A DNA stretch of 64,000 nt from Candidatus Aenigmatarchaeota archaeon (GCA_016187415.1 JACPJT010000004.1:169392-233391), one strand, 5' to 3'. Positions 8,303 to 58,933 are shown, numbered from the stretch's first letter. Made by a program: numbers and translations. The notes: a model not told the origin generated them from the sequence alone.

Positions 8303-9367
8303 CTAATTCGTAGAGTTTTTCGGTGTTGGTTGTCCGTTAACATCAAAATCGGCCAAGTTGTTGTCAGTATCCGCGGTAACTGACTTTCTTTGCAGACTAC
8401 TTCCCGAATCGGGCGGTATTGCAGGTGAATTTTCAAAAACATATGCAGGATTACCCCATCCGACAGCGTCAATCCTTCCGTTTTTAGCGTCTTCGCTCGT
8501 CTTGGTCCTTGGATCGAACGGGAAGACCGCAATCGAACCGTTGTTACTGATTTGCCCCAGAGAATACGGGCTTCCGCTAGATGTCAGCACGGTCCAATCC
8601 GAATTGCTCGTGTTGAAAATGTTTATCAAAAAGAACTTTCCGTGGCTCAGGATTGTTGCATTCGGAAACGCCCAGTTCCTGTATGTGTTGTTCCAGTCCC
8701 GGCTTGAAGAAAAATATGACAAATACCATCCTGTAACATTTACATCTGCGGCGGTTGGGTTGTACAATTCCACAAACTCGTTCGGCGCATTTTGCACCTC
8801 ATATACGATTACATGGGACAATGTTTGAGTTGTTTGATCCGATGTTGTATTCGTTGCGGTTGTTGTCTGGTTTGTTGTGACGCTCTGATTACTTGGAGAT
8901 TGTGTCTGGGACGATGTTGACGGTTGCGTCTGCTGCACAGTAGCAGGAATAATTATTGGACACTGACCGCAATCATCTACGCACGAAGAACAATTTTCAA
9001 CGGGTTCGCATATGCTATTTCCGCAACAGTCCTTAACTACTCTGCTCAAGCAATTGCCGGATGCACAAACATTCACAGCACATGTACTTGGACTACCCCA
9101 ACATTCCTTTGAGATGCCGTTTACAGGAGTATGCGAGCACAGGCTGTTGCTTGTCTCATTGCACCAATCGTCAGTGCAGGGATTTTTATCGTCGCATGTC
9201 GCTGGGCATTCCGTATCGCTTGAGGCATTGTTAGATGCATACTCATCAGAACTATTGGAGATACTGGATGAAACAAAATAGCCGGTAGGATTGAACTGCA
9301 CGAAAAGCGCAGAAATGCCTACAGTCAAAAGTATGGCTGCTGGTATGACCAAATAACTGATTTTCAT
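8303..9367 (-). CDS. Secreted/anchored protein with Cys-rich repeat region and lamin-tail domain
   Basis: CDDKNPCTDDWC and CCGNSICEPVENCSSCVDDC repeats, Thr/Ser/Gln linker, VIVYEV...EFVELYNPTAADVNVTGWYL (LTD). Confidence 0.75.
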   Translation of the reverse strand: MKISYLVIPAAILLTVGISALFVQFNPTGYFVSSSISNSSDEYASNNASSDTECPATCDDKNPCTDDWCNETSNSLCSHTPVNGISKECWGSPSTCAVNVCASGNCLSRVVKDCCGNSICEPVENCSSCVDDCGQCPIIIPATVQQTQPSTSSQTQSPSNQSVTTNQTTTATNTTSDQTTQTLSHVIVYEVQNAPNEFVELYNPTAADVNVTGWYLSYFSSSRDWNNTYRNWAFPNATILSHGKFFLINIFNTSNSDWTVLTSSGSPYSLGQISNNGSIAVFPFDPRTKTSEDAKNGRIDAVGWGNPAYVFENSPAIPPDSGSSLQRKSVTADTDNNLADFDVNGQPTPKNSTN

Positions 9368-9458
9368 TTAATATTTATTAGCATATTAAAGAATATCCTT
9401 TGTCCATTTCATCTTATGTCAATGGAATTCAATATAGTGTATCGGTCTGTGCCTAGGG

Positions 9459-10064
9459 GTGAGTATCTTGATTAAAGCAATTGTATTTGATTTTGGTGGC
9501 GTGGTCAGAAAACCCGGAATAATGAAACATATTTACACGGCTGTGGGAAAGAAATATGGTATTGACAGGCAAATCGTAAGAATGCAATTCCACAAGCTTG
9601 AACAGCCTGTTATTACAGGGAAAATTTCAATGAAACAATTCTGGCTGAGGCTTGGCGAGCTTCTCGGGGTTGAGTGGAAAGGACTTGAAAGGGTTTGGAT
9701 TAGAACTTATGCAAAAGGAGTGGGAATGAACAAAAGGGTTTTGCAGATTTTAGGACGCATCAAGAAGAAAGGCTACAATCTGTCCCTCCTCTCGAATGAG
9801 ATACCATCGCATGCAGAATTTAATGAGAGGCACGGCTATTATAAAAGTTTTCAGAATGTTTTTCTATCACACAGTGTTGGACTAAAAAAACCAGACAGAA
9901 GAATTTTCATTCATGTTCTTCACAAATTAAAAATCAAACCCGCGGATTGCTTGTTCATTGACGACCACGTAGAAAACATCGCAACAGCTGAAAAACTAGG
10001 CATCAGGTCCATACTGTTTGAAAATACTTCCAAGTTCGAAAAAGACATCAAGAATTATCTGTGA
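9459..10064 (+). CDS. HAD-superfamily phosphatase
   Basis: FDFGGV motif I, LSN motif II, KKPD motif III, FIDD motif IV. Confidence 0.9.
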   Translation: MSILIKAIVFDFGGVVRKPGIMKHIYTAVGKKYGIDRQIVRMQFHKLEQPVITGKISMKQFWLRLGELLGVEWKGLERVWIRTYAKGVGMNKRVLQILGRIKKKGYNLSLLSNEIPSHAEFNERHGYYKSFQNVFLSHSVGLKKPDRRIFIHVLHKLKIKPADCLFIDDHVENIATAEKLGIRSILFENTSKFEKDIKNYL

Positions 10065-10084
10065 TTCCATGGTTTCAAAACAAT

Positions 10085-11128
10085 TTAATTTTCATATAAC
10101 TTGAATAGTTTTTCTTTTTTTCGCAGAAGAGTGAAATTAACAGTATCTCTAAATCTAAGTATATTCTCCTTTCCATAAATGTTAACATAATAAACGTAAT
10201 ACGAATAACGTCGAGGTGATTTGAAATTTTTGTAATACTTTTTGAAACTTGTGTTTATTCTTAATTTGGTTAACAGTTTGGTTACGCCTAATAATCCTTT
10301 TCCATTTACACTGTCACATGTAATGAAGTTTCTTGCGACACATCCTTCACTATCAAAAAAACCTCTCAAAAAAGAAGAAATTATATCTTTATTCCTACTC
10401 GTCATTATTATTTGAGGAACACGCCATTTTCTTACTCCAAATTTCCCAATCGATAGCAAATCATTACAAATAAACTCAGGTGAAATGTAAGCTGCAAATG
10501 TATTTCTTTTGGGACGAAAGTTATAATTAAAACCAAGTCCATATACATCCTTAAAACATTTAATAAAGAATTTTATGAAATCTTCATCTTTTTTATTGAT
10601 TTCCAATTGAACAAAATCTTCATTAATGTGGCCATCCCCACAAAGAACTCCAAGAATGTACGCCTTTTCAGATGTTATTTTTTTAAAAGGTTTTGGTGGG
10701 ATGATTAATCTAAAATTACGTAAGAAAGTCTTAACCCTTTTTGTGTTCATGGATTCTTTTTTATTCCTCAAGACAACATTGTACTTAGTTAGCCATTTCC
10801 GAACAGTATTGCCTACTACATTAAATTTTTTACTTATCTCTGTGGGGCTCATACCTTTTTCCAAATAAAGGTTTAGTAAAATATCCCTTTTAGGTGGTTT
10901 TCTAGGTTTGAACCAAGTTGACTTGTTTCTACCAGGTATTCTATCATTATATAACCAATTCGAAATTGTAATCTCTGGTATCAATATTTTGTGTCTTGAT
11001 TTAATCAATCTTGAAATAAGTCTAGAACCAATCTTCTCTTTATTATATAACTGGACTGCAATTCTATGAAATTGCGATTTCTCTTTATCTGATATTTCTG
11101 CATACCTCAACATATATAGCAATAGCAT
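10085..11128 (-). mobile_element. Free-standing LAGLIDADG homing endonuclease with N-terminal HTH
   Basis: Two LAGLIDADG helices (YILGVLCGDGHI, FLRGFFDSEGCV); AT-rich; not inside another gene. Confidence 0.85.
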
Positions 11129-11193
11129 GCTTTGAGTATTTATAGGTGTTATATAAATTAAACCTTAAATAAGATAATCGCTAATGAGAAAGC

Positions 11194-14025
11194 ATGACCA
11201 ATAACATAGCGCAAAATAGTGGAATATTTGAAAGTCTTGACCCTAAAGTAATCGAACTGATAAGAAAATTTGGACTGAAAGAACCGACTCTCATACAAGA
11301 AAAGGCTATTCCAATAATTTCATCTGGATTAAATGCCTTATTAATTTCACAGACTGGAACAGGAAAAACACTTGCAACCTTTTTGCCTATTTTTGATTTG
11401 TGGTTAAAAACAGAACCGAAACCAATAAGTGTTATTTATGTTAGTCCGCTTAAAAGCTTAAACCGAGACATGGTCGAACATTTAATTCGTTGGGGACAGA
11501 AATTAGGAATCGAGGTGGATGTAAGGCATGGTGACACATCCCAACATGAAAGGAAAATGCAAGTTGAATTTCCTCCAGATATAATGATAACCACTCTAGA
11601 ACAACTGCAACCAATGTTGACTGGGAAGAACCTTAGAGAACTGTTGAGAAACATCAAGTATGTTGTAGTCGACGAGGTGCACGAGATAGTGGACTCCAAG
11701 CGCGGTGTGCAACTTTCGCTGGCATTGGAGAGGATAAGAGAACTGTGCGGTGATTTCCAGCTTATAATGCTGTCGGCCACCGTCTCCGATCCAGAATATG
11801 TCGCGGGATTTTTTGCCGGAGGAAAACCAACAAAAGTTGTAAGGGCGGATACCGATAAGGGATTTGAAATAAAAGTGATTAATCCTAAAGCGAGCGCGGA
11901 AGACGATGAAATAGCTCAAAAAATATTTTCATCGGAAGAAACTGCGGCCAGAGTCAGGGTGCTGATGGACCTTATAAAAGAATCGCGATCTACTTTAACT
12001 TTCACCAACACAAGGGACTTTGCAGAAATACTCACATCCAGAATAAAGTCCATAGACCCGAAATTCCCGGTCGAGATACATCATGGCTCATTAAGCAAGG
12101 AAGTCAGGATAAAAGCCGAGAAGGATTTCAAAGAGGAAAAAATCAAGTCTCTGATATGCACCAGCAGCCTGCAGTTGGGCATAGACATAGGCTCTGTTGA
12201 CATGGTTGTCCAATACATGTCGCCGCGGCAAGTGAGCCAATTGATACAAAGGGTGGGGAGGAGCGGGCATGAATTATCAAAGACCAGCAAAGGCGTGATA
12301 ATTACAACCGATGACGACGATATTTTCGAGTCGTCTGTTATTGCGCGGAAAGCTCTTGCCGGGGAAATAGAAAAGTCCACATTCCACGATAACTCGTACG
12401 ATGTCCTGGCGCACCAGTTAATAGGCTTGACATTCGATTTCGGGAGAATCGAAACTGAGAAGGCTTACAGCATAGTGAAACGAGCATACCCCTATAGAAA
12501 TCTGAGTCGTCAGGAATTCATGGACGTGTGCAAACAGCTGGAAAGACTTGGTCTGGTGTTCCTCGATGGGTATATTAAAAAACGTTTGCGCGGTTTCCAG
12601 TATTACTTCGAGAATCTCAGCACAATCCCCAACATAAGACAGTACCGGGTTTTCAACATGCTGGATAGGAGTTATGTCGGTGTTTTGGACGAAGAATTTG
12701 TCGCTGTGCATGGAGAAGCGAATACCACATTCATTGTCAAGGGTCAGCCTTGGAGGATTGTGTCTGTGGAAGATGATAAGGTGCTGGTTGAGCCGGTTGA
12801 AGATATAGAGGCTGCCATACCGGGATGGGAAGGCGAACTGATCCCCGTGTTGGACGATGTTACCGAAGAAGTCGGCAGGCTGAGAAGATTGATAGCCGGG
12901 AAAGTGGAAAAGCTGCCCCAGAACGAAACCGTGAAAGAAATACAAAAATTGTACCCGGTTGATGAAAATTCCGCCAAAAATATGATCAAGACTATCCAAA
13001 ACCAGCTGAAATTTGGCGTGATACCGGATGACAAAACCATCCTTGTCGAAGATTATGATGACTTGGTTGTCATACACTCGTGTTTTGGCAACAATGTCAA
13101 TGAAACTCTGGGAAGATTCCTCACAGCATTATTAACCAGCAGAGTTGGTTCAGTCGGATTGAAAACAGATCCTTACAGGATAATGATCCAGTTCCAGAAA
13201 AAGAATATTGATCTGCTGAAAGAAACTTTGCTGAAAACCAATCCGGAACATCTGCAGAGTTATTTGGAAATGAGCTTGTCTAACAGCGAATTGTTCGCGT
13301 GGAAGTTTGTCCACGTCGCAAAAAGATTCGGCGCCATCACAAGAGACGCGGAGTTCGGCAATGTCAAGATAAAAAAGATCATCGAAGACTATGTTGGGAC
13401 ACCTATATACAAGGAAACGTTGAAGGAACTGGAGACTGAAAAATTTGATATTGAAAAAGCGGTCGACATACTCAAGCGCATACAGAAGAACGAGATCAAG
13501 CTTGTCTTCAGGAACGGGCTGTCCTATATCGGGAAGATTGGCGTGCAGCACAAGTATGCCGAAGTTGTTGGACCCGAAAAACCTGAAATGGAGATATTCG
13601 AGTTGTTTAAGCAACGCCTGCTGAACACACAGGTCAGGATGATATGCGTAAATTGCGGCGACTGGGACAGGGTTTTCACTGTCAAGGACGTTGATGACAA
13701 ACTAAAATGCGGCAAATGCGACTCAAGACTGTTGGCGGCCATGAGGAAGGAATGGGCTGTACCTAGCAAAATCATAAAGAAGGGATTCAGAAAATCCAAG
13801 ATGACGGATTCCGACAAGAAGATGTATGAGAACATGAAGGAGAGGGCTGACCTGTTTATGAATTACAGGTCAAAAGCCGTCAAGACATTGGTGGGAAAGG
13901 GCATCGGTCCTACAACAGCAAAAAGAATTTTGGGAAAATACCATAAAGATGAGGAAAGTTTCTTAAGAGACATTCTTGAGGCGGAGAAGCAATTCGTCAG
14001 GACTAAAAGGTTTTGGTCGCTATAA
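11194..14025 (+). CDS. lhr: Lhr-family ATP-dependent DEAD/DEAH helicase
   Basis: TGTGKT Walker A, DEVH, SAT, HHGSLS, QRVGRSGH; C-terminal CxxC...CxxC zinc motif. Confidence 0.9.
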   Translation: MTNNIAQNSGIFESLDPKVIELIRKFGLKEPTLIQEKAIPIISSGLNALLISQTGTGKTLATFLPIFDLWLKTEPKPISVIYVSPLKSLNRDMVEHLIRWGQKLGIEVDVRHGDTSQHERKMQVEFPPDIMITTLEQLQPMLTGKNLRELLRNIKYVVVDEVHEIVDSKRGVQLSLALERIRELCGDFQLIMLSATVSDPEYVAGFFAGGKPTKVVRADTDKGFEIKVINPKASAEDDEIAQKIFSSEETAARVRVLMDLIKESRSTLTFTNTRDFAEILTSRIKSIDPKFPVEIHHGSLSKEVRIKAEKDFKEEKIKSLICTSSLQLGIDIGSVDMVVQYMSPRQVSQLIQRVGRSGHELSKTSKGVIITTDDDDIFESSVIARKALAGEIEKSTFHDNSYDVLAHQLIGLTFDFGRIETEKAYSIVKRAYPYRNLSRQEFMDVCKQLERLGLVFLDGYIKKRLRGFQYYFENLSTIPNIRQYRVFNMLDRSYVGVLDEEFVAVHGEANTTFIVKGQPWRIVSVEDDKVLVEPVEDIEAAIPGWEGELIPVLDDVTEEVGRLRRLIAGKVEKLPQNETVKEIQKLYPVDENSAKNMIKTIQNQLKFGVIPDDKTILVEDYDDLVVIHSCFGNNVNETLGRFLTALLTSRVGSVGLKTDPYRIMIQFQKKNIDLLKETLLKTNPEHLQSYLEMSLSNSELFAWKFVHVAKRFGAITRDAEFGNVKIKKIIEDYVGTPIYKETLKELETEKFDIEKAVDILKRIQKNEIKLVFRNGLSYIGKIGVQHKYAEVVGPEKPEMEIFELFKQRLLNTQVRMICVNCGDWDRVFTVKDVDDKLKCGKCDSRLLAAMRKEWAVPSKIIKKGFRKSKMTDSDKKMYENMKERADLFMNYRSKAVKTLVGKGIGPTTAKRILGKYHKDEESFLRDILEAEKQFVRTKRFWSL

Positions 14026-51191: not shown

Positions 51192-52082
51192 ATGGCAATA
51201 GCAACGCGTGGAAAACCATCCTGGTTGAAAATCAAAATACCGGAAAAAACTCGACGCATATTAGAATTGCGCGAGATTTTAAGAGAGCATGGTATGGTAA
51301 CTGTTTGCGAAGAAGCGCATTGCCCTAATATTCCAGAATGTTGGAATGGTGGAACGGCAACTTTCATGGTTCTAGGCGACACTTGTACCAGAGGCTGTAG
51401 ATTTTGTAACGTGGCAAAATCAAGGAATCCTCTACCGGTGAATTCATGGGAACCGAAGATGCTTGCTATGGCTGTTAGAGAACTTAAGTTGGATTATGTT
51501 GTGATCACGTCAGTTGACAGAGACGATTTGCCGGATCAAGGCTCAGGACATTTCGCAGAATGCATACGTGCCGTAAAGGAGCAGGATCCCAATGTTATTG
51601 TCGAGGTTCTAATTCCTGATTTCCGTGGTGATATCGAATGTCTGAAGAAGGTTATTGGAGCCGAGCCGAACGTTATAGCTCATAATATAGAAACTATTCG
51701 TAGGCTTCAAAGTAAAATAAGGGATAGAAGAGCAGGATATGAACAATCGTTGCAAGTTTTGAGCAATGTAAAAAAAATGGATTCAAAAATATTTACGAAA
51801 TCTTCAATAATAGTTGGTTTCGGGGAAACTCAGGACGAAGTTGTTGGTGCTATGAAAGATTTGAGGGGCGTCAATGTAGATTTCCTTACAGTGGGGCAGT
51901 ATCTCAGACCGAGCTCAAAACACATAGAAGTTTCGGAATTCATACCACCAGAAAAGTTTGAATTTTATAAAAAATACGGGGAAAAATTAGGATTCAAGTA
52001 TGTCGCCTCTGGACCATTTGTCAGAACCTCTTATCGTGCAGGGGAGTTCTTCACAAAAAGTATTATACGGACTCAAATTTGA
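51192..52082 (+). CDS. lipA: Lipoyl synthase
   Basis: CEEAHCPNIPEC, CTRGCRFC, RTSY. Confidence 0.95.
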   Translation: MAIATRGKPSWLKIKIPEKTRRILELREILREHGMVTVCEEAHCPNIPECWNGGTATFMVLGDTCTRGCRFCNVAKSRNPLPVNSWEPKMLAMAVRELKLDYVVITSVDRDDLPDQGSGHFAECIRAVKEQDPNVIVEVLIPDFRGDIECLKKVIGAEPNVIAHNIETIRRLQSKIRDRRAGYEQSLQVLSNVKKMDSKIFTKSSIIVGFGETQDEVVGAMKDLRGVNVDFLTVGQYLRPSSKHIEVSEFIPPEKFEFYKKYGEKLGFKYVASGPFVRTSYRAGEFFTKSIIRTQI

Positions 52083-52121: not shown

Positions 52122-52898
52122 TTAGGCGATGTCTATTTCTTTGTAAATACTAATATCCTCTTCTTCTGCATTTTTCCACATATTTTCAAAGTATTTTCTA
52201 TAATCATCAGAGACATCTTCAGATTCTATAACAATTGCGAGAGGGTTTTCCACAGATTCGAGAATTATGGCAACCTTGTTTCCGTAAATCCATGTTGATG
52301 TCGGCGTGTAATATTCTTTAGGTATTTCTCTCACATGAAATAAATTTTTATAAATTTTCATGCCATAAATTCTAGGTGTGTTTAAGGCATCACCTCTGGC
52401 TTTTATCATTCTTGCAAAAAGTTTTTTTCGTATGCGCTCACGTATCCATTGTTGAAAATAATAACCAACAACCTTTGCTATATTTGAACTTATACCGAAT
52501 GCATCGTACATTTTATAATTGTTTATATCTCTTAAAACCGCCTTTATACCTTCCCTTCCTTTGAAGTGTTGAATTTCTTGCTTGGATTTTTTTTGATTAT
52601 AAATTGCTTCAAGTTCAGGAAGTATTTTGCTTAGTTCATTTTCTTTTTCTCTGAGAATGGCATGCAAATTCGTGGGCGGTGCACACTCAAAGTATTTCTT
52701 ATTCACGCGTAGAACACTGGCGACAAGACCCCTTTCCATTAACTTCTCTAAGGCATCGTAAACGTTTGCACGATGTATTTCACTTTTGCGCATAATTTCT
52801 GTGGCAGATGCAGAACCCAATTTGAGTAATGCTATATAAACCTTTATTTCATTCGTTGAAAGTCCCAAACTCTTTAACACTTCCATATCCATTCTCAT
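52122..52898 (-). CDS. TrmB-family transcriptional regulator
   Basis: LGLSTNEIKVYIALLKLGSASATEI...VYDALEKLMERGLV; divergent from the NAD operon. Confidence 0.88.
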   Translation of the reverse strand: MRMDMEVLKSLGLSTNEIKVYIALLKLGSASATEIMRKSEIHRANVYDALEKLMERGLVASVLRVNKKYFECAPPTNLHAILREKENELSKILPELEAIYNQKKSKQEIQHFKGREGIKAVLRDINNYKMYDAFGISSNIAKVVGYYFQQWIRERIRKKLFARMIKARGDALNTPRIYGMKIYKNLFHVREIPKEYYTPTSTWIYGNKVAIILESVENPLAIVIESEDVSDDYRKYFENMWKNAEEEDISIYKEIDIA

Positions 52899-53001
52899 AA
52901 TACAATGTGCAATTTAGATTATTTATATTTATAGTAGTGATAACTACAACAAAAGTTGAAGTACATTCGTATTCTTAAAATTTACATGAGGTGTAATATC
53001 C

Positions 53002-53649
53002 ATGAGAATATTTTACGATGTTGACAATCAAAATGATTTTATAAAAGGCAGTGGTGCACTACCTGTTCATGGTGCGGAAGCTCTAATACCTAATCTAGAA
53101 GCATTGACCCGCTATGCAGAGCGACATGGTATCCCTATTTTAGGTTCTGTTGATAGGCACTTCGGTACTAGGAGTTATAAAAATAAAGAGGAGGAGGAAT
53201 TGTCTATCTGGGGAGGACCATTTCAAAATCATTGCATGGATGGAACAGAAGGCCAGAAAAAGATTCCGGGAACATTGCTTAGAGATGTCGTTTACATAGG
53301 TAGTCCGAGAGGACTCCTATCCAGAAAATTGGATGCTCAACAGGTAATTTTTGAAAAACAATCATATGATGTTTTCCATTCGCCTGGAAATTTGGGGGGA
53401 AATAGAAACATAGCGAGAGCATTAAGGATGCTGGATGCCACAGAAGCTGTATTGTACGGTGTTGCCACAGACTACTGTGTCAAAGCTGCTGCACTAGGAA
53501 TGAGAAGATTACTGGGGAAAAAAATTGATTTGTATGTAGTTACGGACGCAATAAAACCTGTTAGCCCTGAAACGGAAAAAGAAGCCTTAAATGCAATGGG
53601 AAAAGTTAACGTTCAGTTTGTTACGGCTAAAGATGTTATAGGAAATTGA
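53002..53649 (+). CDS. pncA: Nicotinamidase (isochorismatase family)
   Basis: DVDNQNDF..GSGALPV, DRH, HC..GTEG, EK, GVATDYCV. Confidence 0.88.
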   Translation: MRIFYDVDNQNDFIKGSGALPVHGAEALIPNLEALTRYAERHGIPILGSVDRHFGTRSYKNKEEEELSIWGGPFQNHCMDGTEGQKKIPGTLLRDVVYIGSPRGLLSRKLDAQQVIFEKQSYDVFHSPGNLGGNRNIARALRMLDATEAVLYGVATDYCVKAAALGMRRLLGKKIDLYVVTDAIKPVSPETEKEALNAMGKVNVQFVTAKDVIGN

Positions 53650-53650
53650 A

Positions 53651-54553
53651 ATGAAACGGGGACTTTTTATTGGAAGATTTCAGCCCTTTCATTTGGGGCA
53701 TTTTTATGTAGTCAATGATATGGAGAAATCTGATGTAAACGAGCTCGTAATAGGTATTGGGAGTGCTCAAATAGGGTACACTGCGTATAATCCGTTTACA
53801 GCCGAAGAAAGAGGACAGATGATAAAGAGAAGTTTATCTTTAGAAATTCCGTATCACATTGCTAGGATAAATGACATAAACGATTACCCCAGATGGGTAA
53901 CGCATGTGAAATCATTAACACCAGAATTTCACGTTGTTTATTCAAGCAATGGTATTGTAAAGAGACTTTTTGAGGAATGTGGTTATGAAGTAAGACCAGT
54001 AACTCACGTATCCATGATTTCTGCAACTGAAATAAGGCAATTAATGGTAACGGGTGGCAATTGGCAGGATTACGTTCCACTAGGAACGCGGGATGTGATC
54101 TTCGAAGTTAACGGAATCGAAAGACTCAAGGAAATTACTGGGAAGTATATGAATCCTGCCGTTACTGCGGATATAATAATAAATTATAAGGGTAGAGGAA
54201 TTGTCCTCATTAGAAGACGACACGAACCTTTCAGAGGATACTGGGCACTTCCAGGTGGCTTTCTCAACACAGGACAAGAATCGCTTGAAACAACAGCTAG
54301 AAGAGAAGTGAAAGAGGAGACATCCTTAACAATAGAATGTTTGGAATTGGTGGGTGTTTATTCGAATCCTGAAAGAGATCCAAGAGGACCTGTTGTTTCT
54401 GTTGCTTATTCCACCGATGTTAATGAAGGTGAACCGAAAGCAGATGACGACGCAAGTGAAGTGGCCGTATTTGACAAAATACCTGAAAATCTTGCATTCG
54501 ACCATGGAAAGATGTTAAGTGATTATTTCAGACATAAGGAGAGAGCGAAATGA
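53651..54553 (+). CDS. nadM: Bifunctional NMN/NaMN adenylyltransferase + Nudix ADP-ribose pyrophosphatase
   Basis: GRFQPFHLGH, NPFTAEER, ISATEIR; Nudix box LPGG...ESLETTARREVKEETSL. Confidence 0.9.
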   Translation: MKRGLFIGRFQPFHLGHFYVVNDMEKSDVNELVIGIGSAQIGYTAYNPFTAEERGQMIKRSLSLEIPYHIARINDINDYPRWVTHVKSLTPEFHVVYSSNGIVKRLFEECGYEVRPVTHVSMISATEIRQLMVTGGNWQDYVPLGTRDVIFEVNGIERLKEITGKYMNPAVTADIIINYKGRGIVLIRRRHEPFRGYWALPGGFLNTGQESLETTARREVKEETSLTIECLELVGVYSNPERDPRGPVVSVAYSTDVNEGEPKADDDASEVAVFDKIPENLAFDHGKMLSDYFRHKERAK

Positions 54554-55455
54554 AAACTTCTGATATAGTTATTGTTCCAAAAATAAGCAAATATGAATTT
54601 GATATTCGCACATACGGGGCAACCCACGAAGAGATTGTTGCAAAGTATAGAAGGGAAGGAGTTGATGTGGAAGTTGTTCTGGAAAGCCATAAAAGACAGA
54701 AAGAATCGTTGGGAAGAATGAGAGGATACTTTGGTGATAACCAATTTATCTCTAGAGAGAAACTCGGAAAAGATATCGTAAGAAATACTAGATTTGTCGT
54801 TGCTCTAGGAGGAGACAACCACTTCCAATATGTTTCTCATTTTGTAGATTCGGCATTAATGATAGGGATTAATTCTGACCCCACAACAAGCGAAGGCGCG
54901 TTAACGTATTACCGAGCCGCAGATATCGAAGCTATACTTACGAGACTTGAGAATGGAGATTTTAATGTCGAAGAATGGACAAGATTAGAAGCTCGTGTAA
55001 ACGGCAACCTCGTTGCATTGGCCATGTGTGAATATTTTCTAGGCGAAGCACAAAGGAAGAACATGTCTAGGAATATAATAAAACTTGGTGATGTAAAAGA
55101 AGAACAAAAATGTTCTGGATTACTGGTAACTACTGGTGCCGGATCAACTGGATGGTATGATTCTGAATGCAAATATCTTTATCCTAAGGGAAACAGGTTT
55201 CCCAAAACAGAAAAAATAGCTAGATTTTTAGTTACAGCACCTTATACTGGAAAATTAAATCGTCCTACTGTGTTAGAAGGCGCCATAAGAGAAGGTGAAG
55301 AATTGACAATCCACTCTTTGAATGACAGCAACGGTGTAGTGACTAGCGATTCTTTGGAAGAATATGAATTCGGGAGAGGTGTACATGCAGTAATAAAAGT
55401 TTCCGATAATCCGTTAAAAGTCGTGAGAATCCACGGGTGTGAACATGGGAGATAG
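54550..55455 (+). CDS. NAD kinase-like protein (divergent)
   Basis: LGGDNHF, GINSDP, TGAGSTGW. Confidence 0.75.
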   Translation: MKTSDIVIVPKISKYEFDIRTYGATHEEIVAKYRREGVDVEVVLESHKRQKESLGRMRGYFGDNQFISREKLGKDIVRNTRFVVALGGDNHFQYVSHFVDSALMIGINSDPTTSEGALTYYRAADIEAILTRLENGDFNVEEWTRLEARVNGNLVALAMCEYFLGEAQRKNMSRNIIKLGDVKEEQKCSGLLVTTGAGSTGWYDSECKYLYPKGNRFPKTEKIARFLVTAPYTGKLNRPTVLEGAIREGEELTIHSLNDSNGVVTSDSLEEYEFGRGVHAVIKVSDNPLKVVRIHGCEHGR

Positions 55456-57007
55456 AAAACCGAATCTCTTGGGACTTAATCCTAATATATTAGCCGGTTT
55501 GAAGGACCATTATGAAACTACTATGCTTGATACAAATGTTGTGGCGGGCGTGGCTGGAAGAAAATCTGTCTTTAATGTTGCTGTAAGGGGATTAAGAAAT
55601 CATAAAGTCATAAAAGAGAAAACGATCGGAGATGAAAATGGCGAATGGCAAAGTTATTTGGCACAACCTGATAATTATTTGCTGAGTGCAGGGCTGGAAC
55701 AAATACTTGCCGCAATTCAAAATTGGAAGATGAATGATAGATTATTACAGTTATACAATGCTAAGGGAATATCCCCCGGGGCTGTAAAATACTTAAAAAA
55801 TAGAAGCCCTCAACTGACCATAAGTGCAATTCCTGAAGGTGTCCCTATTTTTGGGCACGAACCTGCATTGAGCGTCGAGGGCACTTTTGAAGAATGCCAG
55901 CTAATAGAGGGATTATTACTTGGGATATGGGGTTACCAGACTGCTGTTGCTACGCAAGCAAGTTATGTTAAAAATATATTACGCGAGTTTAACAGGCGTG
56001 ATATAATTACTCTTGAAGGTGGCCTTAGAAGAACTTACCCCGGTGCAGCACTTGCAGCAAGTAGGGCTGCATTAATAGGCGGATTTGATGGTACATCACT
56101 CGAACAAATAGGCGTGGAATATCCCGAACTTAGAGAAGGCGTTGGGGGAAGTTCTGGACATTCAGAGGTTCTCCATATAGGTAATGACGAGGGAGCATTT
56201 GAAATGCAACTGAGAGCTCATTATAGAATACGTGATGGTGACGATGAAGAAACCATAAGAAGAAAAATAGCCGGTTCGACCAGATCCATGCTGACTTTTT
56301 TGATTGATACGTTTGATTCCAATGAAGGTGTAGAAGCCGCTATTAGAGTGATGAATAAATATGGCATTCCGTGTCAGATTCGAAATGATAGTGGGAATCA
56401 GTCGGAAAGGGTACGCTATATCAGGACGCGGTTGGATGAAGAAAGATTGTATAAAGCCAAAATTATGATATCGGATGATTTGAGACCATGGATGATATAT
56501 GAACTGCTGGAACATGGTGCAAGGCTTGATTTAGTAATGATGGGGACCTATCTGGTTAATCCTTACAAGCTTCCAGGCGCTGTTTATAAAATTGCTGCCG
56601 ACCAAAGGGTGTTCGGAGATCCGCAACTAGAGCCTGTTTGCAAAGTTTCTTTCAACAATCCTGCAAAAGGTACGCTTCCTGGAAAATTGGATGTGTATAG
56701 AGTTATCGGTAAAGATGGTAAAGCAGATAGAGATGTTGTTATCGCAAGAGATTTAGAAAGTATTGACAGATATTTGAGAACTGATGATGAGGACCATATT
56801 AAACTCAATCAAACAGTAATGGTTGGTAGAGAGTTAAATTATGATATCCTTGACATGAATGGAGTTATAGCTAACGCTAGATATCATTTGGAACTATTGA
56901 GAGACGAACATAAGAAATTCAGAGATGCTAAACCTTATCCTGTCATAATTTCCGACGTTGTTCAACGGGTGAGAGACGAATTTGCTCAAAAATATCGAAG
57001 GTGTTGA
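55445..57007 (+). CDS. pncB: Nicotinate phosphoribosyltransferase
   Basis: DHYETTM, PEG..IF.HEP, GGLRR, GFDGTS, GH, LIDTFD, RNDSG, GAVYK, KGTLPGK. Confidence 0.88.
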   Translation: MGDRKPNLLGLNPNILAGLKDHYETTMLDTNVVAGVAGRKSVFNVAVRGLRNHKVIKEKTIGDENGEWQSYLAQPDNYLLSAGLEQILAAIQNWKMNDRLLQLYNAKGISPGAVKYLKNRSPQLTISAIPEGVPIFGHEPALSVEGTFEECQLIEGLLLGIWGYQTAVATQASYVKNILREFNRRDIITLEGGLRRTYPGAALAASRAALIGGFDGTSLEQIGVEYPELREGVGGSSGHSEVLHIGNDEGAFEMQLRAHYRIRDGDDEETIRRKIAGSTRSMLTFLIDTFDSNEGVEAAIRVMNKYGIPCQIRNDSGNQSERVRYIRTRLDEERLYKAKIMISDDLRPWMIYELLEHGARLDLVMMGTYLVNPYKLPGAVYKIAADQRVFGDPQLEPVCKVSFNNPAKGTLPGKLDVYRVIGKDGKADRDVVIARDLESIDRYLRTDDEDHIKLNQTVMVGRELNYDILDMNGVIANARYHLELLRDEHKKFRDAKPYPVIISDVVQRVRDEFAQKYRRC

Positions 57008-57008
57008 A

Positions 57009-57905
57009 ATGAAAGCACAAACATTTAGCATTTTGGCTGGAAGCGTTGCATGCAATGCACGATGCCCATTTTGCGTATCAAAAATGACACCGTCCAGAGG
57101 GATTAGATTAAAAGAGCCTGGGGTAAATTGGGAAAAATTCAAAAGAGCTGCAGCTTATGCACGAGAACACGGCACAGAAACAGCAATGATAACCGGCAAA
57201 GGAGAACCAACACTCTTTCCCAAACAAATTACAAAATATCTAGATGTTATGAGCGGCTTTGGCTTCAGACATATAGAACTTCAGACAAATGGCATTAGAA
57301 TAGCGGATGAACCAAATGTATACGAACAGCATTTAAGTGACTGGTATGAAAGAGGATTGGATCTTATAGCAATATCTATAGTTCATTATGACGCCGAGAG
57401 AAACAGACAAATATATCTACCTTACAGGAAAAATTATATAGATTTACCAAGTTTGGTTGAAAATTTAAATGACAGGAAAAGAAAATTTAAAGTCAGACTT
57501 GCGTGCATCGCACTTGATGGTTTTATAGACAGCTCATCAAGACTTGCAGATCTAATTGAATTCGCAAGAAAAAACGGAGCAGAACAACTAACAGTAAGAC
57601 CCGTAAATAAAACAGACAGAGTTGATAATGGTGATCCGGAAGTAGAAAAGGCTGCAGTATTTATCAACAAATATCACTTGAAAGATGGACAGATTGATGA
57701 TATGAGGAATTATCTGGCAAGAAACGGGAGGCATATTCGTGAACTTCATTATGGTGCAACTATTTACGATGTTAATGGACGGAGCGTGTGTCTGACGAAT
57801 TCTCTAACGCGTGATTTGAATCCTAATTATTTGAGACAGCTAATCTTCTTTCCAGAAGGTCGCCTTCTGACGGATTGGCAATATGAGGGGGAGGTACCAT
57901 TATGA
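57009..57905 (+). CDS. Radical SAM protein, unknown function
   Basis: CNARCPFC motif, ITGKGEPTL, LQTNG. Confidence 0.88.
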   Translation: MKAQTFSILAGSVACNARCPFCVSKMTPSRGIRLKEPGVNWEKFKRAAAYAREHGTETAMITGKGEPTLFPKQITKYLDVMSGFGFRHIELQTNGIRIADEPNVYEQHLSDWYERGLDLIAISIVHYDAERNRQIYLPYRKNYIDLPSLVENLNDRKRKFKVRLACIALDGFIDSSSRLADLIEFARKNGAEQLTVRPVNKTDRVDNGDPEVEKAAVFINKYHLKDGQIDDMRNYLARNGRHIRELHYGATIYDVNGRSVCLTNSLTRDLNPNYLRQLIFFPEGRLLTDWQYEGEVPL

Positions 57906-58933
57906 AAAAACTCGAGACGATGAAAGCTGTCTATAGTTACTTCTTTCCTGAAGTAAGACGCCTCGTACACATGTCAGACAAATTGCCCGACAAATTGTTT
58001 CTCATATCAACTCCTGTAGAAGAAGCGAGAGAAATGATTGCGAGTTTATTTAGAACACCATTAGACTTGACTGCTACTGCTGACGGAAAAGTAGATCTGG
58101 ACATGGTTCATGAACCCGTCATCGACAGAATAATCAGTGCATATGGTACTGCTATTCCACGGTTAAAAGATTTTTCATATAGATATCCTACATCAGGATC
58201 AAGTGAAGGTATATTCAAAAATTTAGCTATGTTAAAAGTCGGTGGTGTTGATTGGATTTACGTATTAGAGGGAGAATACGAAGGCTATAAAGAATATGGG
58301 AAAACTTTGGGGATAAGAACAATAGAAATTAACCCGCAAAAAACAGATGTTAGAAAACTTAAACCGGGAATTTGGTTTATTTCGAATCCTTCTGCACATG
58401 ACGGCAATATATTACCGGATAATTTTGTGGGTGAGATTTGTGATAGTGGGAATAAAGTATATTTAGACTTGGCTTATGTAGGATCTACCAGAGATTATAC
58501 ATTTGATGTGAGTCATGACAATATTCCCGCTGTGTTTTTATCTTTCAGCAAACCTTATGGTGTGTTTAGATTTAGAATAGGTTTCACTTTTAGCAGAGCC
58601 GAGATACCATCATTGTACGGAAATAAGTGGTTTAAAGATATACCAAGGCTCTTCACTGCTCTCAGACTTGCTGAAGATATTGGACCTTCTAAACTTTACA
58701 GAAGTTATAGACATGTTCAAGAATCGGTAATAGAACATATAAATGAAGATTTTGGATTGTGTATGAAAACTAGCGATGCTGTTCTTCTGGGAAATTTAAC
58801 ACTTGATAGTGCAAGAAAACTTGATCCTTATCAGCTAAAAATGATAGCCCCATTCCAAAGAGGGGAAGGTTATAGATTTTGCTTAACGCCCTATTTTGAA
58901 AAAGTAGAGATGAAAATACTCAAAGGTCCGTGA
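57902..58933 (+). CDS. PLP-dependent fold-type-I enzyme (aminotransferase-like)
   Basis: GSSEGI, SNP..DGN, DLAY, SFSKPYG..RFRIG. Confidence 0.8.
   Translation: MKKLETMKAVYSYFFPEVRRLVHMSDKLPDKLFLISTPVEEAREMIASLFRTPLDLTATADGKVDLDMVHEPVIDRIISAYGTAIPRLKDFSYRYPTSGSSEGIFKNLAMLKVGGVDWIYVLEGEYEGYKEYGKTLGIRTIEINPQKTDVRKLKPGIWFISNPSAHDGNILPDNFVGEICDSGNKVYLDLAYVGSTRDYTFDVSHDNIPAVFLSFSKPYGVFRFRIGFTFSRAEIPSLYGNKWFKDIPRLFTALRLAEDIGPSKLYRSYRHVQESVIEHINEDFGLCMKTSDAVLLGNLTLDSARKLDPYQLKMIAPFQRGEGYRFCLTPYFEKVEMKILKGP

Follow-up and report, generated by a model that had tools for sequence, protein, structure and literature searches.

We analysed a 64,000-nucleotide stretch of DNA from a Candidatus Aenigmatarchaeota archaeon (GCA_016187415.1, JACPJT010000004.1:169392-233391; this whole stretch is called the window below). 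In it, an operon for the salvage of nicotinamide adenine dinucleotide (NAD) ends in genes for a radical S-adenosylmethionine (SAM) enzyme of 298 aa (rSAM, 57009-57905, plus strand) and a fold-type-I enzyme of 343 aa dependent on pyridoxal phosphate (PLP; 57902-58933, plus strand). The pair, so far uncharacterised, is an accessory module that belongs to NAD(P) gene clusters and has been widely transferred; we are fairly confident that it performs a genuine, hitherto undescribed NAD(P)-linked enzymatic step. The new result of this analysis is that the PLP partner and a second active-site cysteine of rSAM (C261-x3-C265) are mutually exclusive.

Residue 265 is Cys in all 36 cellular rSAM copies that have no PLP gene beside them (L065, truncated at a contig end, was left out of this set; individual loci are designated by L numbers). 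In the 31 copies that have the PLP gene it is Ser, Ala or Thr, and never Cys; the window enzyme, with Ser, is of this type. In an independent set anchored on the PLP enzyme, 62 of the 64 adjacent rSAMs are non-Cys at this position. A tree of 67 tips was built without column 265. Parsimony yields 8 changes for each trait, and the two states co-vary at 67/67 tips, which none of 2000 simulations of an independent trait matched (the best reached 56/67). The Cys265 and PLP states are separated by about eight independent switches, some of which fall within clades of DPANN archaea (e.g. L018 versus L008, and L060 versus L059). Given this exclusivity, the second Cys and the PLP enzyme appear functionally interchangeable. 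No thioredoxin-like open reading frames (ORFs) with a CxxC motif were found beside the rSAMs that have no PLP partner. Among the viral copies Cys265 is present in 8 of 9, and no close PLP homologue was found on the viral contigs. The invariant residues are common to the rSAMs with a PLP partner, those without one and the phage copies; therefore the three groups probably start the same reaction.

The dependence between the two genes is one-sided: the PLP enzyme is an obligate partner of rSAM, and rSAM often stands alone. The first part follows from the reverse test on 80 PLP-anchored metagenome loci, with the PLP gene next to rSAM in 66 of them and a contig edge within 200 bp in 12 of the remaining 14. 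With the switch at residue 265, a vague association becomes a mechanistic statement open to test: two equivalents, reducing or amino, are required by the intermediate. The switch also provides natural variants for enzymology, and residue 265 alone is sufficient to sort sequences into the types with and without the PLP enzyme.

The linkage of the module to NAD genes was studied in an rSAM-anchored set of 80 genome loci, which were analysed by tblastn and by clustering of their ORFs; from each cluster of neighbours one representative was scanned for protein families. The archaea in this set include Woese-, Nano- and Aenigmarchaeota; the bacteria include Saccharibacteria, Parcubacteria, Collierbacteria, Melainabacteria, Chloroflexota, Acidobacteriota, Gammaproteobacteria and Planctomycetota. 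Neighbours were counted within 8 kb of rSAM in the 75 loci with enough flank. Some NAD gene is present in 48/75 loci. The commonest neighbour is NADK or a NADK-like gene (33/75), followed by NadM, Nudix or NrtR genes (25/75), NadE (21/75), PncA (20/75), PncB-type genes (19/75), NadA (13/75), NDT-like genes (10/75), NadD (9/75), ADP-ribosylglycohydrolase and NadR (8/75 each), and PnuC (4/75); NadE is often the gene immediately upstream of rSAM. The PLP-anchored metagenome loci, from archaea and several bacterial phyla, have a NAD gene within 8 kb in 32/52 cases. Hence the two genes do not occur mostly without NAD genes, nor were they traced to a characterised unrelated pathway. As the initial annotation had remarked, the known salvage route leaves both enzymes unexplained. 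Their linkage to NAD genes recurs far beyond the window.

The module is attached to de novo operons (L066, with the order nadC-nadA-nadB-PLP-rSAM, and L172), to salvage operons (the window, L022, L036, L094 and L095) and to nicotinamide riboside (NR) uptake sets (PnuC-NadR); it is therefore not bound to one branch of NAD entry. In Obscuribacter (L043, L048, L053 7132-10888) the genes are a NadR-like ribosylnicotinamide kinase, a tandem NadD-NadD fusion, a NADK-like gene and rSAM, with a 4-nt overlap between the NADK-like stop and the rSAM start. Bacterial clusters with the module often include a gene for a putative NrtR-type regulator: in the rSAM operons L023 and L036, proteins of the Nudix type with about 230 aa match the NtrR/NrtR model with 163-166 bits (cut-off 400), and a tblastn search with the L036 protein matches many other loci. 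The window has no NrtR. It has a divergent TrmB-like gene instead, as does the archaeal locus L126, where the gene is divergent from NAPRTase-rSAM-PLP-NadA-PncA-NadE-NadM/Nudix. The L126 protein is a full-length homologue of the TrmB-like protein in the window (26% identity over 258 aa), and this arrangement supports the TrmB link in archaea. Taken as rSAM alone or as rSAM with the PLP enzyme, the module recurs in NAD(P) gene clusters and has spread horizontally as a member of them. Two candidate features of these loci were discarded. A neighbour family of apparent Se/S carriers is mostly a clustering artefact, its two large members that were scanned being NadR-type proteins. An apparent NadM-rSAM fusion (L025, L009) has its matches in different frames, and the long ORF is an upstream extension.

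Judged by its sequence, rSAM is assigned to the radical SAM superfamily (PF04055, 39.6 bits at a threshold of 29.5). The cluster motif C15-N-A-R-C19-P-F-C22 (CNARCPFC) is invariant, and the GKGEP (GGE-like) and QTNG motifs are present. K64, E66, Q92, N94, S123, N132, R163, D254, C261, R276 and W290 are near-invariant; the conserved basic and polar residues are K25, K64, R133, R163, R276, N94, N132 and Q92. Outside the cluster motif the only conserved cysteines are C261, which lies in the C-terminal beta extension, and, depending on the type, C265, and there is no auxiliary cluster. The nearest fold to the predicted model (pLDDT 86) is MoaA, with a template modelling (TM) score of 0.66, followed by viperins at about 0.6; further fold matches include EpeE, DesII and BlsE. 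The best profile matches in PDB are viperins (E about 0.005). Both rSAM and the PLP enzyme have hundreds of relatives with 50-60% identity in DPANN archaea and bacteria of the candidate phyla radiation (CPR), and the matches share contigs. On the tree, the window rSAM groups with copies from Levybacteria and Gammaproteobacteria (support 98/97). The highest identity is to a Nanoarchaeota copy, and for this reason the tree was not used to claim a donor. The Joint Genome Institute (JGI) annotates the family as MoaA, and our literature search found no paper on it. In two metagenome loci (L151 5132-7769 and L156 3-2361) the order is rSAM, PLP enzyme and a paralogue, rSAM2, followed by NadD; rSAM2 does not have C261 and carries a different C-terminal motif, AQNNNFLNVCT.

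In the PLP enzyme, K217 (in SFSK; generally SxSK), D189, N162, R225 and R325 are invariant in 24 sequences, R320 also being listed. By position these are the Schiff-base Lys, the PLP-N1 Asp, the PLP-O3' Asn, the phosphate Arg and the carboxylate Arg; the Lys/Asp/Asn/Arg set stands where it is expected in a transaminase-type active site. The predicted model (pLDDT 93) compared by Foldseek gives a generic class I/II aminotransferase fold with TM of at most 0.61, and the protein is placed in this class from the model and PF00155 (22.6 bits, cut-off 19.7). Its nearest solved relatives by sequence are HisC and CobD (E from 4e-6 to 5e-5). Two more specific identities were rejected: HisC itself, given a TIGR01141 score of 26 bits against a cut-off of 276, and a NAD-alkylating PLP enzyme of the SbzP type, as no match to such entries was obtained in PDB even at E 10.

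As to the chemistry, our tentative proposal, made by analogy, is a radical beta-elimination on the ribose of NAD(P), nicotinic acid adenine dinucleotide (NaAD) or ADP-ribose, the keto intermediate being resolved by transamination or by a dithiol. It is proposed because of the MoaA- and viperin-like folds, the strongest gene links, which are to the dinucleotide end of the pathway (NadE, NADK), and the overlap of the NADK-like gene and rSAM in Obscuribacter. MoaA and viperin abstract ribose hydrogens of nucleoside triphosphates (NTPs), and rSAM may likewise be nucleotide-directed, as are these nearest folds. The 5'-deoxyadenosyl radical would abstract hydrogen from the ribose of a pathway (di)nucleotide, adenine or pyridine, the likeliest being NAD(P)+, NaAD or ADP-ribose. 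Beta-elimination would then expel the neighbouring hydroxyl, or the 2'-phosphate put on by the adjacent NAD kinase; the link to NADK would be explained in this way, since a 2'-phosphate would be an excellent radical leaving group. Donation of a hydrogen atom by C261 would give a keto-deoxy intermediate.

From this point the two types of rSAM would diverge. In the C261/C265 enzymes the CxxxC pair beside the radical site could serve as a dithiol supplying a hydrogen atom and an electron, so that the intermediate would be resolved reductively, in the manner of ribonucleotide reductase (RNR). In the enzymes with Ser or Ala at position 265, the window enzyme included, the coupled PLP enzyme would transaminate the keto intermediate; alternatively, it might supply an amine leaving group, the part that DesI plays for DesII. 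What is formed would be the cofactor or ADP-ribose in a deoxy or amino-deoxy form. Several known systems provide precedents. RNR missing one reducing Cys releases a 3'-keto-2'-deoxynucleotide, the C225S mutant giving 3'-keto-dNDP, and NrdD subtypes switch the reductant through a single Met/Cys position. An aminotransferase acting on a sugar ketone, or an amine leaving group, is known from DesI/DesII, BlsE/BlsH, PolH/PolI and AprD4/AprD3. HisC and CobD, the nearest relatives of the PLP enzyme, handle phosphate-ester substrates.

One elaboration of this scheme is highly speculative, and we give it very little credence: an NMN adenylyltransferase (NMNAT), NAD kinase, rSAM and a Nudix hydrolase might form a cycle for RNR-independent 2'-deoxygenation of adenylate with NAD as the handle. 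In such a cycle nicotinamide mononucleotide (NMN) and ATP would give NAD, which would be phosphorylated to NADP; rSAM would abstract the 3'-H, and the 2'-phosphate would leave by radical beta-elimination. The C261/C265 dithiol would complete an RNR-like reduction to 2'-deoxy-NAD, from which the Nudix hydrolase would release deoxyadenosine monophosphate (dAMP) and NMN. The Nudix-fused 2-deoxyribosyltransferase-like domains encoded after rSAM in CPR bacteria could pass the deoxyribose to other bases, and with enzymes of the PLP type the keto intermediate would undergo amination instead.

Several points weigh against ribose beta-elimination on an NAD-pathway nucleotide. The fold neighbours of rSAM are only about 15% identical to it, so the nucleotide substrate is an analogy. 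As a rule, aminotransferases that act on keto sugar nucleotides belong to the DegT type rather than to the HisC type. The reductive and transaminative routes lead to different end products, which is awkward for a single role in NAD metabolism. Approximately one third of the loci (in Collierbacteria, Chloroflexota and Acidobacteriota) have no nearby NAD gene, and neither do 12 of 13 phage loci. The adjacency to NADK, finally, may reflect nothing but the NAD super-operons of small genomes.

It is possible, though we think it unlikely, that the module serves instead as an oxygen-independent entry to the pyridine ring. In that case rSAM would work with the PLP enzyme, to which aspartate or an amino acid related to it is bound, and make an imine or enamine (for example, iminoaspartate) for the quinolinate synthase NadA; in a variant, nicotinate or quinolinate would be made directly, and the enzyme resembling nicotinate phosphoribosyltransferase (NAPRTase) would convert the product to nicotinic acid mononucleotide (NaMN). 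NadA does occur in 13/75 and 9/52 loci, usually without NadB and NadC in otherwise very complete clusters; such 'orphan NadA' genes are found, for instance, in Saccharibacteria (L014, L023, L038) and DPANN archaea (L005, L013, L019, L021, L026). A divergent NAPRTase directly adjoins the pair in the window, L003, L022, L036 and L126, the PLP enzyme retains the C-terminal Arg typical of alpha-carboxylate binding, and imine formation by a flavin enzyme in one case and a radical SAM enzyme in the other has a precedent in ThiO and ThiH. However, NadA is absent from the window and from many salvage-type loci, L066 and L172 already carry NadB and NadC beside the pair, and an oxidase of the DAO family could fill the role of NadB. 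In Melainabacteria the operon consists of NADK-like and rSAM genes only. The nearest folds are those of NTP-binding enzymes and not of the amino-acid lyases ThiH, HydG and NosL, and the switch between Cys265 and the PLP enzyme is not obviously explained.

The oxidase just mentioned, a FAD-dependent protein of about 460 aa, is found in the NAD clusters of six loci (L003, L009, L051, L024, L028, L032) and adjoins NadA in L003, L009 and L051 (e.g. L051 789-2180). It is matched weakly by L-2-hydroxyglutarate oxidase, Mqo and type 2 glycerol-3-phosphate oxidase, and might replace NadB or provide dihydroxyacetone phosphate (DHAP) or oxaloacetate.

Repair of damaged pyridine nucleotides is a less probable function still. 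Here rSAM would work as an epimerase or dehydratase of the radical kind in which C261 returns a hydrogen to the opposite face, so that beta-NAD(P)(H) would be restored, for example, from its anomer or from a hydrated or isomerised form. The near-invariant single Cys in the C-terminal extension does look like the hydrogen-donating Cys found in radical SAM epimerases, the fold matches include EpeE, the module is associated with the dinucleotide end of the pathway (NadE, NADK), and repair would be useful whatever NAD entry route the organism has. Yet repair gives no role to an obligate partner with an aminotransferase fold and does not explain why this partner should give way to a second Cys; the clusters showed none of the known repair genes (Nnr), and the distribution is sporadic for a housekeeping repair enzyme.

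A function unrelated to NAD, with the pair hitch-hiking in or near NAD clusters, we regard as improbable. About 36% of the loci with enough flank show no NAD gene, isolated pairs occur in Collierbacteria (beside an MttB-family gene) and in Chloroflexota (beside an amidohydrolase), and the phage copies are solitary. But the association reappears across two domains and six or more phyla, in varied gene orders and with stop/start overlaps with NAD genes, which makes chance an unlikely explanation. In L071, L073 and L077 (Collierbacteria and Woesebacteria) an isolated rSAM-PLP pair is divergent from a gene of the non-pyrrolysine MttB methyltransferase family (L073 8436-9899, minus strand), members of which demethylate quaternary amines.

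The initial annotation had named three candidate functions for the two enzymes: making or recycling a pyridine precursor, modifying the cofactor, and making an antiviral nucleotide. Modification of the cofactor at the nucleotide level fits best. The viperin-like synthesis of a chain-terminating or antimetabolite nucleotide, for antiviral defence or host interference, fits worst and is very improbable: viperin is among the best folds and a keto- or amino-deoxy nucleotide would resemble known chain terminators, but the matches to viperin models are weak (NF038283, 33 bits, far under the cut-off of 180; PADLOC pVip, 37 bits, core only), the neighbours are NAD biosynthesis and NrtR genes rather than defence islands, the gene is co-translated with housekeeping salvage enzymes, and contigs of jumbo phages encode rSAM themselves. 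The structure comparison that had been suggested with viperin and known aminotransferases thus gave viperin as one of the nearest folds and not as the family of rSAM, and for the PLP enzyme a generic fold.

Thirteen contigs of the jumbo-phage type carry rSAM with 32-43% identity, almost always as a solitary gene. No conserved partner was found in these neighbourhoods, and a Pfam tally of 122 viral ORFs gave sugar-nucleotide and miscellaneous genes. The only phage contig with an NAD-type context is L081 (127 kb), where a phosphoribosyltransferase-like gene, YopX, rSAM (Ala at residue 265) and a pncA-like gene lie at 8458-11557, not far from RtcB, a B12-binding radical SAM gene and genes for sugar nucleotides. 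Viruses with CPR bacteria or DPANN archaea as hosts have been reported to have NAD genes and 'moaA' among their auxiliary genes (PMC12647753). Some of these published 'moaA' calls may belong to the rSAM family, since MoaA is the name that JGI gives to it.

In the window, all seven ORFs of the block were confirmed at their stated coordinates. Six plus-strand genes (53002-58933) are tightly packed and divergent from a gene for a TrmB-family regulator (52122-52898, minus strand; PF01978, 69 bits) with a helix-turn-helix domain and a C-terminal sensor-like domain. The first encodes a PncA-like nicotinamidase of the isochorismatase fold (53002-53649; PF00857, 62 bits; NF008623, 39.5 bits against a cut-off of 174). 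Its translation contains DVDNQNDF (DxQxDF), EKQSYD and ATDYCV, which we take to be the Asp, Lys and Cys motifs of PncA. It is followed by nadM-Nudix (53651-54553), coding for a bifunctional protein with an archaeal-type NMN/NaMN adenylyltransferase (NF002243, 175 bits, cut-off 127) and a Nudix hydrolase (PF00293, 73 bits); GRFQPFHLGH, ISATEIR and a Nudix box are present in it. The third gene (54550-55455) is that of a divergent, NADK2-like protein resembling NAD kinase (NADKL). The best PDB match of this protein by sequence is human NADK2 (E 2e-8, covering the N-terminal half); it has no Pfam match, and the NCBIfam NADK models are weak (at most 36 bits). The window protein has GGDNH (for GGDGT), CE and GSTGW, where most relatives in the family alignment have GGDG, LNE and GSTGW. 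The fourth (pncBL, 55439-57007) encodes a divergent pncB-like protein of the NAPRTase family, 522 aa long (TIGR01513, 209 bits, cut-off 297), with a PDB match to E. faecalis NAPRTase 2f7f (E 1.7e-34).

The junctions agree with the co-translation of all six genes that the initial annotation had proposed. They are 1 nt between pncA and nadM, an ATGA overlap between nadM and NADKL, an overlap of 11-17 nt between NADKL and pncBL, 1 nt between pncBL and rSAM, and an ATGA overlap between rSAM and the PLP gene, which are translationally coupled. The rSAM start was taken as ATG 57009, where the homologues begin, and TTG 56982 was rejected. Ribosome-binding sites of the GAGG/GGTG type are located upstream of pncA, NADKL, rSAM and the PLP gene. 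The six genes form one operon for NAD(P) recycling that ends in the two-enzyme rSAM-PLP module. The TrmB-like gene and the operon are separated by an AT-rich spacer of 103 bp (52899-53001), which contains a TATA-like TTTATATTTATAG and a short palindrome GTAGTGATAACTAC; we infer that the TrmB-like protein regulates the operon. In the counterpart spacer of L126 (3918-4011) no palindrome clearly resembling that of the window was seen by eye. The window locus matched DNA runs only, from a groundwater metagenome, with no RNA data among the matches.

Two further statements about the operon held in part. It had been described as a complete route from nicotinamide to NAD(P). The PncA-like, NadM, NADK-like and PncB-like proteins are present, but no nadE homologue was found by tblastn within the 64-kb window, nor were nadA and nadC. 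As the branch through PncA and PncB ends in NaAD and needs NAD synthetase, the operon alone is not a full Preiss-Handler route. The GC content of the block had been said to be lower than that of pdhA, and it is: 38.3% against 41.0% for the window (standard deviation 1.7% among windows of block size), with pdhA and pdhB at 46-49%. However, lipA and lipB, at 39-41%, are similar to the block, and it is pdhA and pdhB that are outliers. The position of the block between lipA (51192-52082) and pdhA (from 58971) had also been taken, with this contrast in GC, to suggest acquisition as a unit. The evidence for it is weak, as the contrast comes mostly from the GC-rich pdhAB; a mobile island was rejected given the ordinary composition, including the tetranucleotide distance, and the lack of tRNA genes and flanking direct repeats.

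Some other genes recur near the module. In CPR bacteria, stand-alone C265 rSAMs (L009, L011, L014, L023, L034, L038, L051) have nearby a gene whose product, about 390 aa long, combines a nucleoside 2-deoxyribosyltransferase-like domain (PF15891) with a Nudix-like part (e.g. L023 10954-12126); this gene is immediately 3' of rSAM in L011, L023, L034 and L051. Small NDT-like ORFs (c58) are found in the NAD clusters of DPANN archaea (L018, L019, L072, L111, L175). Encoded convergently after the rSAM-PLP operon in archaea, Levybacteria and Gammaproteobacteria (L002, L005, L022, L036, L111, L117, L145; e.g. L005 14351-15910, minus strand) is a protein 500-600 aa long that has a class I SAM-methyltransferase domain and, in its N-terminal part, a stretch recalling NMNAT. 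Finally, in L012 (7243-10004) and L015 (2100-6000) a trio of genes lies between the NAD genes and rSAM: those for a Ser/Thr protein kinase, a protein of about 330 aa with no assigned family, and a pyruvate-kinase-barrel-like protein of about 300 aa.

The biosynthesis and salvage of NAD are regarded as fully mapped, yet the rSAM family travels with NAD(P) genes in two domains of life. The module marks either a reaction missing from cofactor metabolism, be it editing, recycling or a novel route of entry, or else a new NAD-derived molecule in the ultra-small symbionts dominant in groundwater. Its reaction is now constrained and is of high interest for the enzymology of both NAD and radical SAM proteins.

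Among the known systems, NrtR-type NAD clusters and the NAD gene sets of phages (NadV/NatV, NARP) share with the clusters described here PncA, PncB, NadM-Nudix, NadE, NadD, NadR, PnuC and NADK, and NrtR-like genes stand beside rSAM in many bacterial and DPANN loci. We know of no radical SAM or PLP enzyme in any described NAD pathway or NrtR regulon, and our literature search found no paper joining 'NrtR' with 'radical SAM'. HisC and CobD are similar to the PLP enzyme in length and have the same Lys/Asp/Asn/Arg constellation, but the TM score to any solved aminotransferase is 0.55-0.6, and the PLP gene is found beside rSAM and never in his or cob contexts.

The best structural match of rSAM is MoaA (GTP 3',8-cyclase), an enzyme whose target is the 3'-H on the ribose of a purine nucleotide; both have an N-terminal CX3CX2C motif, a small partial-barrel core and a C-terminal beta extension. 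However, the identity is about 15-18%, the TIGR02666 score is 39.5 bits against a cut-off of 284, the three C-terminal cysteines for the second [4Fe-4S] cluster are missing from rSAM, and no moaC or other molybdenum cofactor genes are nearby. The rSAM family was therefore not assigned to MoaA on account of the score and the missing second-cluster Cys. Viperins, including the prokaryotic pVip (CTP to ddhCTP), carry out radical dehydration of a nucleotide ribose. They resemble rSAM in profile and fold, in a length of about 290 aa and in having no auxiliary cluster; they differ in the model scores (NF038283, 33.4 bits) and in context, which is NAD and not defence for rSAM, and, unlike the rSAM family, have no known dedicated PLP partner or CxxxC pair. 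Membership among viperins was rejected on the score and the neighbouring NAD genes.

In DesII/DesI, BlsE/BlsH, PolH/PolI and AprD4/AprD3, a radical SAM enzyme makes or consumes a keto or amino position on a nucleotide-attached sugar and has an aminotransferase partner. There is no detectable sequence kinship with the DesI-type partners, the PLP enzyme of the window being HisC/CobD-like and not DegT-like, and these pathways make secondary metabolites, whereas the rSAM-PLP module sits in primary NAD operons. Pairs of the DesII/DesI type are nevertheless the closest analogy for how the module may work.

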